Below, piece after piece: positions 6,094 to 21,902 of a DNA stretch of 30,091 nucleotides. The position numbers were made by a program, and so were the translations under genes. The stretch is from Chlamydiales bacterium (GTDB lineage Bacteria; Chlamydiota; Chlamydiia; Chlamydiales; JBDQID01). How positions within the stretch are numbered: position 1 is the stretch's first letter; each line of letters starts with the position of its first letter. The stretch lies in assembly GCA_047611865.1 (NCBI GenBank), contig JBLFWS010000024.1, forward strand, positions 1-30,091, read 5' to 3'. A model generated the notes under the pieces. It worked only from the letters and a program-made list of their open reading frames with translations. It searched no databases and was not told where the DNA came from.

Positions 6094-6254
6094 GAATCGT
6101 TAGAAAATAAGTTGATCGATTTGAACGTATATTGTGCATCAGGTGTGGTCTTGTAAATTCGCAGCCGAGGTGAGCATCTCAGCAAGAATTTGAAAGAACA
6201 CAGATGGCGTGCAAGATACTTTCAAATCGATCAACTTATTTTTTAACGATTCCT
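6092..6254. repeat. ~163-bp imperfect palindrome, MITE-like or palindromic element
   Basis: AGGAATCGTTAGAAAATAAGTTGATCGATTTGAA matches the reverse complement of TTCAAATCGATCAACTTATTTTTTAACGATTCCT with 1 mismatch. Imperfect pairing continues to the centre near 6173. Confidence 0.9.
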
Positions 6255-7490: not shown

Positions 7491-7580
7491 ATGAAAGTCA
7501 ACCAAGCTCTATCCACAATTATTCTAGTGATTATTACTATTGTGGTGGATAGCCATAACAGGGTGCGGACTTACGCGTAG
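7491..7580 (+). CDS. ilv leader peptide 1, MKVNQALSTIILVIITIVVDSHNRVRTYA
   Basis: Translated by hand. Ile/Val/Leu/Thr cluster with Leu encoded as CTA. GGTGCGG in its 3' end is complementary to the terminator left arm. Confidence 0.9.
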   Translation: MKVNQALSTIILVIITIVVDSHNRVRTYA

Positions 7581-7606
7581 GCTTAAATAGCTAAAGCAAG
7601 TTAAGT

Positions 7607-7643
7607 AAAAGCCGCACCTTAAGCAAGGTGCGGCTTTTTTTTT
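7607..7643 (+). terminator. Attenuator terminator 1 of the ilv operon
   Basis: AAAAGCCGCACCTT-aagc-AAGGTGCGGC followed by T9. Antiterminator partner GGTGCGG at 7562-7568. Confidence 0.93.
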
Positions 7644-7684
7644 GGCCAAAAGCAAAGATGGAAAAATACAAAAGAAAAGAAAAA

Positions 7685-7789
7685 ATGAAAAGTACTCTTA
7701 AGCAAATCATTCCAAGCCTAGTCATTGTGAACATTATTATTGTGATTCTAGTCGTCCTAGTGAAGGAGACGAGGTGCGGGCTGATGTGA
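7685..7789 (+). CDS. ilv leader peptide 2, MKSTLKQIIPSLVIVNIIIVILVVLVKETRCGLM
   Basis: Translated by hand. 14 of 15 consecutive residues are I/V/L, with three CTA Leu codons. Alternative in-frame ATG at 7658. Confidence 0.9.
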   Translation: MKSTLKQIIPSLVIVNIIIVILVVLVKETRCGLM

Positions 7790-7817
7790 TAGAGATACAC
7801 AGCAGTTAAGGTTTGAC

Positions 7818-7856
7818 AAGAACCGCACCTCGAAAGAAGTGCGGTTCTTTTTTTTT
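7818..7856 (+). terminator. Attenuator terminator 2 of the ilv operon
   Basis: AAGAACCGCAC..GTGCGGTTC followed by T9. Antiterminator CGAGGTGCGG (7770-7779) pairs perfectly with CCGCACCTCG (7823-7832). Confidence 0.93.
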
Positions 7857-7888
7857 ATCAAAAGCAATAGCGAAAAAGGAATCGGGGA

Positions 7889-9980: not shown

Positions 9981-11075
9981 ATGTCAAAAATGAAATTTGG
10001 AAATGAAGAAGAAGAAGTTGTGAATCGTCAAGAGTTTCCTCTGGAAAAATCTTTAGAAACTTTGAAAGGAGAAACCATAGCAGTACTTGGATACGGGGTA
10101 CAGGGACCTGCTCAAGCATTGAATCTAAGAGACAACGGCTTCAATGTCATCATAGGGCAAAGAAAGCATTCACGTTCTTGGGAAAAGGCATTAAATGATG
10201 GCTGGAAAGAAGGGGTGAACTTGTTCCCTCTGGAAAAGGCTTGTGAGTTAGGGAGCTTTATATGTTACCTGCTATCAGATGCAGGGCAGATGCAGTTATG
10301 GGATACGATAAAACCTTATCTTACCCCAGGAAAAACGCTTTGCTTCTCCCATGGATTTTCAGTGACTTATGCTGAACAAACAAAAGTTGTTCCTCCTGAG
10401 GGTTTGGATGTGCTTCTCGTAGCTCCAAAAGGTTCTGGTAGAAGCGTAAGAAAGTTATTTCTAGAAGGTAAGGGGATTAATGCAAGCTATGCTGTTTTTC
10501 AGGATGACAGTGGCAATTCACATGAAAAAGCGAAGGCTTTTGGTATCGGTATAGGATCAGGTTATCTTTTTAAAACCGATTTTAAAAGCGAAGTTTTTAG
10601 TGACCTGATGGGTGAGCGTGGAGTCCTGATGGGTGCTTTGGGTGGTATGATCGAAGCTCAGTATGAAGTACTAAGAGAAAATGGGCATTCACCCAGTGAA
10701 GCTTTTAACGAAACGGTAGAAGAGTTGACTCAAAGCCTCGTTCCTCTTGTTGGAGAAAATGGGATGGACTGGATGTACGCCAACTGCTCAACAACGGCCC
10801 AACGTGGAGCACTAGACTGGAGCAAACGCTTTAAAGCAGAGCTTAAGCCATTGTTTGAAGAACTATATAATGATGTGGCTACAGGAAAAGAGACGGCTAT
10901 AGTCCTCGATGCTAACTGTCGTTCTGATTACAAGGAACAGTTGGATAAGGAATTGGCGGAGCTCGGAGAAAAGGAAGTCTGGAGAGTGGGGAAAAAAGTT
11001 CGTGAGCTACGCCCTCAAAATGGTAATCAAGAATCTATAGAAGAAAGGGTGACTTGTTTTGTACCAGCTAGTTGA
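9981..11075 (+). CDS. ilvC: Ketol-acid reductoisomerase
   Basis: GYGVQG, SHGF, VAPKGSG, SDLMGERGVLMG and CSTTAQRGA motifs. Confidence 0.97.
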   Translation: MSKMKFGNEEEEVVNRQEFPLEKSLETLKGETIAVLGYGVQGPAQALNLRDNGFNVIIGQRKHSRSWEKALNDGWKEGVNLFPLEKACELGSFICYLLSDAGQMQLWDTIKPYLTPGKTLCFSHGFSVTYAEQTKVVPPEGLDVLLVAPKGSGRSVRKLFLEGKGINASYAVFQDDSGNSHEKAKAFGIGIGSGYLFKTDFKSEVFSDLMGERGVLMGALGGMIEAQYEVLRENGHSPSEAFNETVEELTQSLVPLVGENGMDWMYANCSTTAQRGALDWSKRFKAELKPLFEELYNDVATGKETAIVLDANCRSDYKEQLDKELAELGEKEVWRVGKKVRELRPQNGNQESIEERVTCFVPAS

Positions 11076-12891
11076 TTTCAAAACGAAAGAAAATGTTGAA
11101 GCAAAGGACCTGGTCTTTACAGGCGACGAAAACCCCTGGGAAGTAGTGGTGGATTTGGAAAAGGTGAAAAAGAAAATAAACCTCGATCACTTTAAGCAGG
11201 TTCCTCCAAGCCTTTCGAAGTACCTACCTTTCCTGCCTATCAAAGACTACGGGAATTTTGTCTCTTTGAGAGAGAGTGCGACACCTTTGATACAGTCGAA
11301 GTCTCTGGGTAAGAAATTGGGTGTGGATCTATATTTTAAACTCGAGGGAAAGAACCCCACAGGCTCTTTTAAAGATAGAGGGTCTGCAGTAGACATCTCT
11401 GTAGCAAAAGAATTCAATGCAAAGGGAATTGTTCTTGCTTCAACAGGAAATATGGCAGCCTCTTGCTCTTGTTATGCAGCGGCTGCAAAGATACCTTGTT
11501 TTGTTTTTATTCCCGAGGGTGTGTCTATGGGCAAATTGGCCCAAGTGATATCTTTTGGTGGGCGCATAGTGCAGGTTAAAGGTACCTACAATGATGCGGC
11601 AAGATTAGCTGAATCAGTTGCAAAAAGCATGGGCTTCTATCTGGCCGGGGATTATGCCTTCAGAGTAGAGGGACAGAAAACAGCAGCCTTTGAGTTGATG
11701 GATCAGATGTTTTTCCAAGATGTTGACAAAGTAGTTTTGCCTATAGGTTGTGGTACAAATATGGCGGCTTATGTCAAAGGTTTTAGAGAATATCGCTACC
11801 TGGGACTTATAGAAACTATTCCACAGCTGATAGGTGTTCAGGCAGAAGGAGCCTCCAGCGTAATCAACAGCTTCAACAAAAAAAGTTGGAGCATAGAGAG
11901 CACTAAGGGGGTAAACACCTCGGCTTCTGCAATAGCGGTGGCTGATCCCTTGGATGGGACAAAAGCCTTAGAAGCAATATACAATACAGGAGGAGAAGCT
12001 TATTCCGTGACGGATCAGGAAATTCTCCACTCGCAGTATTTGTTGGCTAAAGAGGAAGGCTTGTTTGTGGAGAGTTCTTCCGCCTCAGCAGTAGCTGCCT
12101 TGTTTAAGATGTCTCTGGATAAAAGCGCAAAGGGACAGAGAGTTGTTTGCATTCTTACTGGGGATGGCTTGAAAGATCCAGATGTTATCCTAAAGGCTGC
12201 CTTAAAGCCCCCTACTATAAGGCCTGAAGAAAAGGAATTTAAGAGTCTTTACGATGGTGGGTTTTTTAATAGCAAAAATATCGTCTTTCTTGATAAGGAT
12301 GTTCCACTCTTTTCTAAAGCTCCGACAGCGGATGAAGTTAGGGAATCCCTTACGCAGTTTTTTAATGCAGATTTTTGTAACGAATATGTGGAGAAGATCA
12401 AAGAACTCTCTTCTGCATGTTTAGCAAAAGGAAAGACGGTAACTCATTCAGACTTCCAGGATATTGTACAGGATGTCTTAGAGAGTTCTGATAGTGAAGT
12501 GGAAAAAGATTTTACTGTTTTAGACTTCGAAGTAAGCACAGGAAAAGATAAGGTCGCCAAAGCGCAAGTTGAGGTAGTTTTTAGAGGGTTAAAGCATGTG
12601 GCTCATGCAAAAGGTGTAGGACCCGTTGATGCCGTTATCAACGCCTTATCCAAAGCCTGTAAAGGGGAAATTGATTTTAAATTGACGAATTACAAAGTAG
12701 ATATCCGTAATAAAGGCGTGGATGCTCTGGTATATGTGGAGCTGAAGTTGGAAAAGGATTGTCATTCTTCTTTAGGGCAAGCAACTTCTCCAGATATTAT
12801 ACAAGCTTCAATAGAAGCTTTTGAGGGAGCATATAACGGATTTATCAACTCGCAAAAAAACAAGGTACTTCATGAGTCAGGTTCTCAATAA
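11059..12891 (+). CDS. thrC: Threonine-synthase-like PLP enzyme fused to a C-terminal LeuA/CimA-type allosteric domain
   Basis: [10 protein letters not shown] (PLP Lys), [21 protein letters not shown]. The C-terminus has [34 protein letters not shown] start overlapping ilvC. Confidence 0.85.
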
Positions 12892-16809: not shown

Positions 16810-17064
16810 CTATTGTATTGCTTTTGCCAAGATCATAATTTCTTTGTAGATCTTCTCTAGATGTTTTTGGACAATAGATTCTTTTGCATACTGTTTAATA
16901 CTTTTCAGGACCTCACTTTCTCGCTGACAATCAAAGACCTCCTTTTGATGGTGGCGTTTTACCTTTCCTATATTGGCTGCAATGGCTGTGCGTTTTTCTA
17001 TTAGGTGCACTAACTGTTTATCTATTGTATCAATTTCATTTCGTAAGCTTTCCAAGCTGTTCAT
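16810..17064 (-). CDS. Monofunctional chorismate mutase (AroQ type)
   Basis: LESLRNEIDTIDKQLVHLIEKR, IGKVK and DCQRESEVL. ATGA overlap with the PDT gene and a GGAG SD. Confidence 0.92.
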   Translation of the reverse strand: MNSLESLRNEIDTIDKQLVHLIEKRTAIAANIGKVKRHHQKEVFDCQRESEVLKSIKQYAKESIVQKHLEKIYKEIMILAKAIQ

Positions 17065-17651
17065 GGCTTTCTCCATGATTTTTTTTGAAGAGCAAGAAAA
17101 AGAGTGTAGTTGTGTTCTTCGTCTTCTAAGTTTTCCTGTGCAATAGAGAGGTTATTGAGCCTTGCGCATTCTGAGCTTCCTATTGCGGCATAACGTATGT
17201 CATTCATTTTTGCCACATGCGATGATGCTCTTGCGGTGTCGGAATAGGCAACGGCTTCTATCCAGGGGTGTTCTTGAAAAAACTTAGCACATTGGGCTAA
17301 AGCTTTAGGGTGGGAGTAGATCTTTTTGAGCTTACGGAGATCTAGCCCTGATTCATCAAGATAAGGTACTAAAAGCTTAAGTTCTACTTTGAGCCAGTCC
17401 TCATGAAAAATTTTGAGTTCGTATTTTTTCATCAGTTCGATATTTTCTTCTATGGGCCCTACAAGAGAATTTTTTATGGGAACCACTGCCAAGCTTGCTT
17501 TTCCCTTATCTACCGCTTCGAAAATTTTATTGAAGCTACTGTATCCAGCAAATTCATCGAGAGAGGGAAGGAGCTTTCTTGCTGCCTGGTGGGAAAAGGA
17601 TCCCCTTCCGCCAAGGTAGGCAGCAACACCAAAGGGGTTCAGTCTCTTCAT
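17061..17651 (-). CDS. pheA: Prephenate dehydratase, catalytic domain only (no ACT domain)
   Basis: AYLGGRGSFSHQAA, VVPIKNSLVG, YSHPKALAQC, DTA and NYTLF. The gene ends immediately after the catalytic domain. Confidence 0.88.
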   Translation of the reverse strand: MKRLNPFGVAAYLGGRGSFSHQAARKLLPSLDEFAGYSSFNKIFEAVDKGKASLAVVPIKNSLVGPIEENIELMKKYELKIFHEDWLKVELKLLVPYLDESGLDLRKLKKIYSHPKALAQCAKFFQEHPWIEAVAYSDTARASSHVAKMNDIRYAAIGSSECARLNNLSIAQENLEDEEHNYTLFLALQKKSWRKP

Positions 17652-18439
17652 TATGCGACCTTCGCTGTTTCAAGGGTTTTTCTGAAAAGATCGAGGGAAA
17701 GCTGTTGTTCTTTGTCTGTTCGGGCATTTTCCGGATCATTATGAACTTCAATAATGTTGCCATCGAAAGAGTATTTCTTTGCAAGCCGCAGAATCTCGAG
17801 GACTCTTTCTCTTGTTCCACCAATATGTGAAGGGTCTAAAATCATGGGAACTCCAGTTTTTAGCCTTACACGCATGGCCATGTCCAGATCGGGTAGGTTT
17901 CTGTAAGATCTTGGATTTTCTTGCCTGCCTGGGCTGAATCCACGATGGCACATGAGTAATCGATTTCGGGGGAGTCCTTCATTGATAATGTGCTCGAGTA
18001 TTCCCAGCCAATGTTTTTCGTTGTCCCATGGTTGGTTTTTAATCATAAGGTAGGTTTGTCCAGACCCTTCAGCCAAGACTTTCGCAATTTTCTTTTGTTC
18101 GAAATGGTTTTGGTTCCGAGCGCCAAGCCAGACTAGTAGACGAGCATCTTTCCCGTAATTTTGAATTTCTCTGTCCAGTAGCTCTGCATGCTCAGCTGTG
18201 ATGATTTCTGTTGCAGGAATGAGACCGAGGGGAACGGTTTCTTCCATAAGAATTTTTGCTCCTTCATCTCCTAGTCCTTCCCAACCCGGTTGTGTCCGAG
18301 GTTTCCATAGAGAGGCTCGGATGACTTTGACGCCAACTTGCCTGAGTACCGTAGCGCATTCCTTAAGTTGTTCTCTTGATTCGAGGGCGCAGGGTCCCGC
18401 TATTGTGATGTTTCCTAGATGATTTAATAGATTGTCCAT
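17651..18439 (-). CDS. DAHP synthase, class I-beta, catalytic barrel only
   Basis: IAGPCALES, WKPRTQPGWEGLG, WLGAR, CHRGFS, DPSHIGG and IEVHNDPENARTD. Confidence 0.9.
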   Translation of the reverse strand: MDNLLNHLGNITIAGPCALESREQLKECATVLRQVGVKVIRASLWKPRTQPGWEGLGDEGAKILMEETVPLGLIPATEIITAEHAELLDREIQNYGKDARLLVWLGARNQNHFEQKKIAKVLAEGSGQTYLMIKNQPWDNEKHWLGILEHIINEGLPRNRLLMCHRGFSPGRQENPRSYRNLPDLDMAMRVRLKTGVPMILDPSHIGGTRERVLEILRLAKKYSFDGNIIEVHNDPENARTDKEQQLSLDLFRKTLETAKVA

Positions 18440-18463
18440 TTTTCTTATCCTTTTTGTTGTGGC

Positions 18464-18493
18464 AAAAAAAAAGCCCCGCTATTTGCGGGGCTT
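18464..18493 (-). terminator. Attenuator terminator B (gene-proximal) of the aromatic operon
   Basis: On the minus strand AAGCCCCGC-aaata-GCGGGGC followed by T9. Antiterminator GGCTTGG in leader B pairs with CCAAGCC. Confidence 0.92.
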
Positions 18494-18536
18494 GGCACTG
18501 ACTTAGTAGATACAGCTTTATAGCTGTAAGATTCCA

Positions 18537-18614
18537 TCAACCATCCCCAAGCCTCTCGGGCAGCATAAAAAAGCAATAAAAGGAGTAGGTGAGTAATACT
18601 TGGAATCTTTTCAT
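18537..18614 (-). CDS. Phe/Tyr leader peptide B, MKRFQVLLTYSFYCFFMLPERLGDG
   Basis: Translated by hand. YSFYCFF cluster upstream of the antiterminator and terminator. Confidence 0.88.
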   Translation of the reverse strand: MKRFQVLLTYSFYCFFMLPERLGDG

Positions 18615-18639
18615 TTTTTTGTGAACCTTGTTTCTTGGC

Positions 18640-18668
18640 AAAAAAAAAGCCCCGCTTTTAGCGAGGCT
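18640..18668 (-). terminator. Attenuator terminator A of the aromatic operon
   Basis: On the minus strand AGCCTCGCT-aaa-AGCGGGGC followed by T9. Antiterminator GGGGCTGG at the end of leader A pairs with TCAGCCTC using two G-U pairs. Confidence 0.9.
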
Positions 18669-18699
18669 GATTAACTTTCTATACCACTGGTGGTATGCG

Positions 18700-18771
18700 T
18701 CATCCAGCCCCTTGAGAGGAGATCATAAAGTAAGCATAAAAAAACTTAACTTGGGTCTGGATAGTATTCAC
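18700..18771 (-). CDS. Phe/Tyr leader peptide A, MNTIQTQVKFFYAYFMISSQGAG (GTG start)
   Basis: AAGGA SD 7 nt before the GTG; FFYAYF cluster. Protector pairing ATCCAG/CTGGAT. Confidence 0.85.
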   Translation of the reverse strand: MNTIQTQVKFFYAYFMISSQGAG

Positions 18772-18799
18772 TAGGGCATCCTTTTGCAGGCTTTAAGGT

Positions 18800-20131
18800 C
18801 TATTGATCGCAAAGATTTAAATTTTTGTCAATCTTATTTGAAAGATGTTTGGGAATAGTAGCGGTTTTTAAAATATCATTGAGCGTTTCTCTTTTCCTAA
18901 TGAGGTGAGATTCGCCCGAGCAAACAAGAACTTCTGCAGCACGGGGTTGAGTATTGTATTGGGAGCTCATGGAAAAACCATAAGCGCCTACATCGAGCAG
19001 AGCTAGCAGATCCCCAACTTCGAGTTTGCTTGGCAGGAGGCGGTCCTTGGCGAACTGGTCAGTATTCTCGCAAATAGGCCCTACCACATTGACCTCTTTG
19101 TCACAGGGCGCATCTAGCTTGTTGGCGCAAAGGATGTGGTGATAGGTGTCATAGAGGGCTGGGCGTAAAAGAGTGTTCATTCCAGCATCGACACCTATAA
19201 ATGTCTTATGTGTTTTCTTTTTGGATACCACTGAAGTTAGTAGAATGCCTGCATCAGCAACCAAGTAACGTCCTGGCTCATGAATTAAGGCGGGTTCTCC
19301 CATTTCATATTTTACTAGTCTGTCTTTGAATGTCTCAACTACTTCCCTTGCGACAGCATCGATATCCAGATCGCTCTGTTCTGGCTTATAGGGGATTCCT
19401 AAGGATCCTCCTATATCGATAAACTCAAATTGAATCCCCAGTTTCTGGGCGATGGGACCTACAATATCGAGTAGTCGGGCAACGATTTCTTTGAAGTAGG
19501 GAGGGCTGAGAATGTTGGAACCTGTCATCATGTGGACACCAAAATGCCTTACGCCTAATTCTTTTGCCTTAGCGTAGGCTTCTTCTACCTGTGATTCCAC
19601 GATGCCGAATTTGGCATCTTTTCCAGCAAAGACAAGACCCTCTGACCCACTACTTCCAACACCGGGATTGACGCGAAAACTAAGAAATTCGGGCATACCA
19701 AATCGCGCGAGGTGGTTGAGATCCTCGATGTTTTCCAGATTTATCAGAACGTTTTTACTGAGGGCTTCAGCAAGACTTTCCTGAGAAGGGAAAACGGGTG
19801 AAAAGAGTTGTTTGTTTGCCGCTATTCCCACAAGGCTTGCTATATCCAGCTCTCCCACACAAGAACAGTCTGCACCAGCGCCTTCTTCAGCTAGAATCTT
19901 TACTACGGCGGGGTGGTTGTTGGCTTTTACAGCATAGTATAGGGAAAAGTGTGGATAGTATTTTTTGTAAGCTTGTATCAGGCGACGGGTGTTATCTCGG
20001 ATGCGGTTTTCGCTATAGACATAGAGAGGAGACCCATACTTTTCTACAAGGTCACGAGCGGGGCAGCCGTCAATTAGTAACTCGCCGTTGCTTTCTTCCA
20101 GCTGTGAAACAGAATGCCAAATATTATCCAC
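18800..20131 (-). CDS. lysA: Diaminopimelate decarboxylase
   Basis: YGSPLYVYS, YAVKAN (PLP Lys), KFGI, HEPGRYLV, GPICENTD and GAYGFSMSSQYN. GTG start after GAGGAG. Confidence 0.96.
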   Translation of the reverse strand: MDNIWHSVSQLEESNGELLIDGCPARDLVEKYGSPLYVYSENRIRDNTRRLIQAYKKYYPHFSLYYAVKANNHPAVVKILAEEGAGADCSCVGELDIASLVGIAANKQLFSPVFPSQESLAEALSKNVLINLENIEDLNHLARFGMPEFLSFRVNPGVGSSGSEGLVFAGKDAKFGIVESQVEEAYAKAKELGVRHFGVHMMTGSNILSPPYFKEIVARLLDIVGPIAQKLGIQFEFIDIGGSLGIPYKPEQSDLDIDAVAREVVETFKDRLVKYEMGEPALIHEPGRYLVADAGILLTSVVSKKKTHKTFIGVDAGMNTLLRPALYDTYHHILCANKLDAPCDKEVNVVGPICENTDQFAKDRLLPSKLEVGDLLALLDVGAYGFSMSSQYNTQPRAAEVLVCSGESHLIRKRETLNDILKTATIPKHLSNKIDKNLNLCDQ

Positions 20132-21526: not shown

Positions 21527-21592
21527 AGCTTTTCCTTAGTATTTAAGGAGAGAGAATTTTAAAAATGGTGGTGGTATAATGTATGACCCACA

Positions 21593-21763
21593 ACCAGTAG
21601 CTCTCCACGTTACTTACGTGACAGTCCCAGGGCTTCACCCCTAGAAGGACCAACAAGAAAAGTTCCAGAGCTTTTCCTACTTCGGCGTTAATCCCCTTCT
21701 TCGGTTTTCATTGAGACCAGGATCTCTCCAACCGAATATCTGGTTAACGCTCCTCTTACTGAT
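21593..21763 (-). promoter_or_regulatory. Lysine riboswitch (L-box)
   Basis: The minus strand reads CAGTAAGAGGAGC...AAGGGG..ACGCCGAAG...GACTGTC..GGAGAGCTACTG, matching the L-box consensus. Located upstream of lysC-lysA. Confidence 0.95.
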
Positions 21764-21902
21764 TTCTTAAGAAAGAAAATACGCTTTATTGATAAACGTA
21801 TTCAGAATATTCAGTCAATGGCTATTTTTCCTTAGACATTTATTGGGAGCTGTCTATTCTGACCAAAGCGCCTTTCTATTTTATAAAAAAGGAGTAATAA
21901 CC

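Follow-up and report, generated by a model that had tools for sequence, protein, structure and literature searches.

Leader region of the aromatic operon

The window, that is, the whole stretch of 30,091 nucleotides analyzed here, is contig C24 of a 3.6-Mb Chlamydiales genome (G000, 95.5% complete), and carries on its minus strand three genes for aromatic amino acids: a DAHP synthase (17651–18439, 262 aa), a prephenate dehydratase (PDT; 17061–17651, 196 aa), and a stand-alone type II chorismate mutase (CM_2; 16810–17076, 88 aa). The DAHP synthase comprises the type I catalytic barrel only, with no N-terminal regulatory domain; its alignment with solved type I enzymes covers the barrel alone, beginning at residue 97 of a 338-aa chain, and its length is that of a 262-aa archaeal-type chain. 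Bare-barrel DAHP synthases of this kind likely escape feedback inhibition. The PDT stops at the end of its PDT domain, its homologues having 269–280 aa. Two other DAHP synthases were seen in the same genome, a stand-alone copy 63% identical to the first (L015, G000:C103:8291-9103), in whose upstream region no attenuator unit was found, and a third, longer one that ends the trp operon on contig C3. Upstream of the aromatic genes, also on the minus strand, lies lysA (18800–20131), which is downstream of lysC and of a lysine riboswitch (21590–21765). The riboswitch, lysC, lysA, two attenuators, and the aro genes follow one another on one strand from 21765 to 16810, an order in which as many as three RNA switches could govern the aro genes.

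The gap between the end of lysA (18800) and the start of the DAHP synthase gene (18439) holds two leader/terminator units in series, all on the minus strand. Leader ORF A (18771–18700), 29 nt beyond the end of lysA, has a GTG start and 23 aa (MNTIQTQVKFFYAYFMISSQGAG), with the sensing codons F-F-Y-A-Y-F at 18744–18727 and, judging from its sequence, a Shine-Dalgarno-like site (18779–18783) about 8 nt upstream. It is followed by the intrinsic terminator A (18668–18640), a 9-bp stem with one G-U pair (18668–18648) and a U9 tract to 18640, with a folding energy of -13.9 kcal/mol. Leader ORF B (18614–18537) has an ATG start and 25 aa (MKRFQVLLTYSFYCFFMLPERLGDG), with the sensing codons Y-S-F-Y-C-F-F at 18587–18567, and precedes the intrinsic terminator B (18493–18464), again a 9-bp stem (18493–18471) with a U9 tract, to 18464, folding at -17.4 kcal/mol. 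Each leader contains three Phe and two Tyr codons. Both units show two of the features of a leader-peptide attenuator, a cluster of codons for the end product and an intrinsic terminator before the first gene. The two terminators by themselves are not significant (two observed against a shuffle mean of 1.2), and it is the combination that stands out: units A and B are the only places in the 3.6-Mb genome, among 105 strict terminators, where a Phe/Tyr cluster of at least five codons lies beside one. A terminator together with a Phe/Tyr-cluster ORF was likewise found in none of 640 shuffled upstream regions (in an earlier, slightly different scan), which, with the ORFs, clusters, and stems, confirms what had been read from the sequence alone, two Phe/Tyr units ahead of DAHP synthase-PDT-CM. 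An Rfam search of the window placed no leader-peptide, T-box, or riboswitch family over unit A or B, its sole match at the gathering score being the lysine riboswitch.

Prephenate dehydrogenase was not found in G000, which does have a phenylalanine 4-monooxygenase above cut-off (L189, C10:8788-9489), and in a comparison of five genomes no match to this enzyme was obtained in the four that have TyrA. Synthesis of Tyr from Phe would explain the Tyr codons retained in both leaders, as far as such a small sample can suggest.

Single and tandem units in relatives and in other operons

Homologous DAHP synthase loci came from three sources: a search of 400 genomes in the phylum, in which 11 had a match and one genome was not scored (a repeat search with an alignment query gave the same genomes back); GTDB contigs, with 53 loci; and metagenomes, with 73. 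De-duplication reduced 141 loci to 114, and the removal of 19 with <450 nt upstream left 95. Two units are present in 18 of these non-redundant loci, one unit in 41, and none in 36, although in some of the last the gene is internal to an operon and one (L047) had been counted as single in an earlier scan. The tandem loci include, besides G000, G267 (L073), G282 (L075), and L018, and also records titled Peregrinibacteria or Patescibacteria (L026, L061, and L065), so that the tandem extends far outside the chlamydial lineage and its spread had been understated in the sequence-only reading. Several records with titles naming Gammaproteobacteria or Pseudomonadales sit among Patescibacteria on the tree, so that these titles are doubtful; the DAHP synthases of G000 and of genomes from the same order cluster with records whose titles name Chlamydiae or Parachlamydiales, which points to an environmental chlamydia.

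Protein trees were built as a quick tree (61 rows) and with FastTree (95 rows). On the FastTree of 95 proteins the single/tandem state needs eight changes, at least five of them on well-supported branches, with gain and loss indistinguishable because the trees are midpoint-rooted. Near relatives may differ, L071 being single beside the tandem L018 and L073, and L151 single beside L065 and L162. With singles outnumbering tandems and at least five to eight changes of state, doubling is not essential. Tandems occur in 13 of 20 operons of the Phe/Tyr branch against 4 of 33 shikimate-pathway operons, a contrast that reduces to three independent pairs (sign test p = 1) and in which the branch labels of L046, L061, L062, and L159, with no Pfam match at 1e-8, come from BLAST labels or inspection. 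Phe and Tyr codons occur together in 17 of the 18 first units and 17 of the 18 second units, and Trp codons in 21 of 41 singles, most of which head shikimate-pathway operons, against 2 of 18 at each tandem position. Two other ideas about the tandems were rejected: their terminators are not stronger (medians of -12.0, -13.1, and -13.3 kcal/mol, no difference), and they do not in general compensate for a PDT without an ACT domain, as other tandem loci have PDTs of 278–280 aa.

Many Patescibacteria-type loci (L028–L069 and metagenome loci) carry shikimate or Phe/Tyr operons for which one aromatic attenuator is predicted, with Trp codons in roughly half. Separately, three attenuator-less chlamydial homologues (L019, L022, and L023) head clusters with paired oxidoreductase-like genes (identified by inspection), which suggests that these DAHP synthases were recruited to secondary metabolism.

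The sequence-only reading had also taken the two units for an old duplication maintained by selection, from a 21-nt stretch shared by the terminators and from leader peptides that have diverged but kept their Phe/Tyr clusters. The stretches (18460–18480 and 18636–18656) are indeed exactly identical, yet this does not show the duplication, as 20 of the 21 nt also occur in the single-unit locus L072. The 21-mer is a terminator 3' arm with its U tract, a family consensus, and therefore cannot date the event. Compared outside the terminator, the two units of the window stand only at 45th and 32nd place of 76 in mutual similarity. Better evidence of age comes from position-specific matching, first units with first and second with second, seen in L026/L111, L065/L162, L061/L063/L159, and L029/L097/L117, and partly in L018/L073. 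Such inheritance by position supports a pair kept over long evolutionary distances, and the two copies have remained intact despite their divergence, a point in favor of selection acting on the pair.

The same architecture had been noted twice within about 11 kb, and the companion is also real: an Ile/Leu/Val tandem lies ahead of ilvB on the plus strand (7491–7858, about 11 kb from the aro pair), with leaders at 7491–7580 and 7685–7789 and terminator stems at 7609–7636 and 7818–7849. These two ilv and two aro units, all in the window, are the only clear leader/terminator units that a scan of G000 found. A search with ilvB matched in 10 of 400 genomes, with tandem units in G000 and G184 and single ones in G117, G357, and G188 (the last by eye); no upstream unit was found in G321, G205, G370, or G009, and G197 offers only 366 nt upstream. 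The G184 tandem (L089/L185) is homologous to that of the window. The tandem thus recurs in ilv (two tandem, three single). No attenuator unit was found at the trp operon of G000, which appears to be controlled by TrpR, with an operator-like palindrome and a gene that inspection identifies as trpR-like; searches of this genome for hisG and for a full leuA found neither. Other candidates of the genome scan, with Cys or His codons (C20, C48, C22, and C187), are placed at the ends of genes or ahead of unrelated ones. With no unit found at trp and singles as common as tandems or commoner in relatives (aro in the handled genomes is tandem in three and single in two), double attenuation is not the general design of the lineage that it had been taken for.

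Some further features were noted in passing. The first ilv leader has Thr codons in or beside its cluster, and a threonine synthase-like gene lies within the operon; its product (11059–12891) is fused to a C-terminal match to the LeuA regulatory region (residues 445–605). In G184 (contig C90, L184) a Leu/Ser-rich short ORF ending in SLPSLLSLLLSA, with no intrinsic terminator, lies upstream of a leuC-like gene and is possibly a terminator-less Leu leader. A long inverted repeat between permease and asparaginase-like genes of the window (6097–6250, by eye) is possibly a small mobile element.

Predicted antiterminators and ribosome position

In both units of the window, the segment that follows the codon cluster is predicted to form an antiterminator with the 5' arm of the adjacent terminator. 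In unit A the predicted 5' arm of this structure (18700–18711, minus strand), formed by the last codons of the leader and its stop, pairs with 18673–18663 at -13.3 kcal/mol (2 of 50 shuffles equally low), and in unit B the arm at 18541–18555 (minus strand) pairs with 18495–18487 at -14.8 kcal/mol (4 of 50). A protector helix that would hold arm B when no ribosome is present is predicted in the 5' part of ORF B; none is predicted in unit A. The codon cluster is conserved in 77 units of the family. The post-cluster segments of these 77 units were then paired with their own terminator 5' arms, with the arms of other units, and with shuffles, giving mean duplex energies of -13.3, -10.2, and -6.3 kcal/mol, respectively. 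Pairing with the own arm was better than the swap mean in 70 of the 77 and better than 95% of shuffles in 61. The prediction of a mutually exclusive antiterminator that a ribosome could mask is strong family-wide, and modest for each unit of the window alone.

Position agrees with such masking. The median distance from the last Phe/Tyr codon to the start of the arm, over the 61 significant units, is 11 nt (10–90% range 8–14). The downstream reach of a ribosome is reported as up to about 12 nt (PMC4833913), so that one stalled in the cluster would leave the arm free and one a few codons further on would cover it. The motif classes of the two arms also covary: CCTCC-type arms occur with GGAG-only segments 25 times and with GCGG/GGGG-only segments twice, the corresponding numbers for CCCGC-type arms being 0 and 20, counts which are inflated by kinship and come down to two independent pairs on well-supported branches, not significant. 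The G runs were misaligned in a MAFFT alignment of the 77 units. Synonymous codons are both used (TTT 190, TTC 48, TAT 110, and TAC 78).

Folding of the nascent RNA with the ribosome footprint blocked, either stalled or at the stop codon, gave a median sequestration of the terminator arm over the 77 units of 0.85 stalled and 0.03 at stop, with a gap >0.2 in 73 units and a reversal in none; this result is not independent of the duplex test, since masking more of the RNA trivially reduces pairing. Unit B behaves as a clean switch in this model (0.69–0.84 stalled against 0.05 at stop). The contrast in unit A is weak by probability (0.67 against 0.50); by energy, the stalled helix has -20.9 kcal/mol and the pairing at stop only -1.5, beside -13.9 for the terminator. 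When no ribosome is present, the antiterminator is the predicted default in 67 of 77 units, for which no protector is predicted, and unit B of the window, with its predicted protector helix, is an exception. A rule by which first units fail open and second units fail closed, suggested by the window, was considered and discarded as not general (4 of the 18 first units have low default pairing, as do 2 of the 18 second ones).

Probable serial attenuation, its rivals and its precedents

We predict, with a probability of roughly 0.8, that these are two serial ribosome-mediated attenuators, both of them reading charged tRNA-Phe and tRNA-Tyr. When Phe or Tyr is short, a ribosome translating the leader would stall in the cluster and leave free the purine-rich segment about 9–15 nt downstream, which would pair with the 5' arm of the terminator and let RNA polymerase read through. 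With both amino acids plentiful the ribosome would advance a few codons and cover the segment, and the terminator would form. The polymerase would be tested twice, and read-through would approximate the product of two probabilities, with a lower basal leak and a steeper response. Basal read-through at pheA of Escherichia coli is reported as about 10% of the starved level (PMC3082878), and two independent units each leaking as much would pass about 1%. A similar behavior is expected of same-ligand tandem T-boxes and riboswitches (PMC12452182). Terminator A would in addition end lysC-lysA read-through transcripts in G000.

The placement of promoters seems to agree with a serial action. Of the 18 tandems, 9 have a match of at least 10/12 to the consensus ahead of unit 1, and none has one ahead of unit 2; with strong promoters before the first unit and none between the units, the two likely act in series on one signal. 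The arrangement of a serial tandem, a promoter upstream of both modules and none between, is thus seen in the family by consensus match, the promoter of the window itself being weak. Here the match ahead of unit A is only 7/12, with a perfect -35 hexamer (18826–18831, minus strand) inside the last lysA codons and a poor matching -10, a candidate weak promoter; L018 has a similar -35 context upstream of unit 1. A terminator scan of the window found none between lysA and leader A, and transcription may therefore start at the weak internal promoter, come from lysC-lysA read-through, or both.

It could also be that both units work and their doubling is nearly neutral, duplications arising and persisting while either unit suffices. 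The excess of single over tandem loci (41 against 18) and the close relatives that differ in state (L071 against L018/L073, L151 against L065/L162) are what this would produce; however, both units keep cluster, spacing, and antiterminator although their similarity has fallen to near background, and across genomes the first and the second units have separate lines of inheritance. Decay would be expected of a redundant copy, so we regard neutrality as unlikely. We give much less credit to the reading of terminator A as a constitutive lysA terminator, with ORF A untranslated and only unit B regulating, from its own promoter. No other terminator was found after lysA, leader A starts with GTG behind a poor -10, and the tail of terminator A contains a 9/12 promoter-like match, but this match ends at 18613, so that its transcript would begin downstream of the ATG of leader B, and a near-identical match follows terminator B (about 1.1 expected by chance). 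Moreover, homologous first units follow unrelated genes and have strong promoters, lysA is the neighbor only in the window among the labelled loci, and leader A has kept its cluster and antiterminator spacing. The least probable reading, slighter even than the last, is a division of signals, one unit sensing Phe and the other Tyr, as an AND gate of the kind seen in Salmonella mgtCBR or in mixed tandem riboswitches: the operon of relatives feeds both amino acids (CM-TyrA fusions) and the codon order differs between A and B, but each of these has three Phe and two Tyr codons, both codon types are present at either position in nearly all tandems (17/18), and L075 has only Tyr in both units.

Why the units should be doubled is less certain than serial attenuation itself. 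As most units have no predicted protector and would read through by default without a ribosome, a lower leak is a likely benefit, though this is a weaker argument and fits unit B of the window less well because of its predicted protector. Our fuller proposal is tentative, and we would put it somewhat short of even odds: that these same-signal tandem leader-peptide attenuators form an undescribed design, which environmental chlamydiae and Patescibacteria have repeatedly acquired or lost and which serves two unrelated operon families, and that the doubling of a leaky switch with no protector would square the leak and take the place of allosteric feedback, probably absent from the bare DAHP synthase.

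Leader-peptide attenuation is textbook knowledge, usually described as one switch per operon. One of the closest known systems is E. coli pheL/pheA, which shares the short leader ORF with a Phe run, the antiterminator, the intrinsic terminator, and the Phe biosynthesis genes, and is described as one unit with a 1:2 pause/protector hairpin that senses Phe (PMC3082878); here, two units stand in series, Phe and Tyr codons are mixed, and 67 of the 77 family units have no predicted protector. The motif uORFC-13-1 before aroF of Acholeplasma is similar by description only, a predicted uORF with Phe codons and a terminator ahead of a DAHP synthase gene, described as one unit from Acholeplasma and unassigned environmental sequences (PMC8632094), and Staphylococcus aureus is described with a single Leu-rich attenuator (PMC5794164). 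Two leader-ORF attenuators on one transcript leader are known from Salmonella mgtCBR (mgtM/mgtP), called a singular example by its authors, in which two different signals (ATP and Pro-tRNA) act through stem-loops unlike intrinsic terminators (PMC3641672), unlike the present case with the same signal in both units, two intrinsic terminators, and the cognate biosynthetic operon as target. Tandem T-boxes and same-ligand tandem riboswitches also join two full sensor and terminator modules for one signal, from which a digital, pseudo-cooperative response is expected, but there the RNA binds the tRNA or ligand directly (PMC12452182) and here a translating ribosome would sense, with no aptamer. Also on record are erm genes that carry a pair of leader peptides and, separately, synthetic tandem attenuators.

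In the main texts of the open-access literature, a scope outside which the main comparative attenuation surveys fall, we found, among the papers listed, no same-signal tandem of leader-peptide attenuators; the only natural tandem leader-ORF attenuator found there was that of Salmonella, and nothing was found on leader-peptide attenuators in Patescibacteria. For chlamydiae, a 2010 survey reports almost no attenuator with known function (PMC2965389). Judged on sequence grounds, then, this is a known mechanism and a real, conserved feature, and what appears to be new is the same-signal doubling. Predicted amino-acid-sensing attenuation is now placed in both Chlamydiota and Patescibacteria, and the matched single and double loci (41 and 18) offer a direct test of serial multiplication, leak, and steepness, the units being also compact parts for Phe/Tyr biosensors. 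If it is true, the undescribed tandem design would imply a tight coupling of transcription and translation in these host-dependent lineages.
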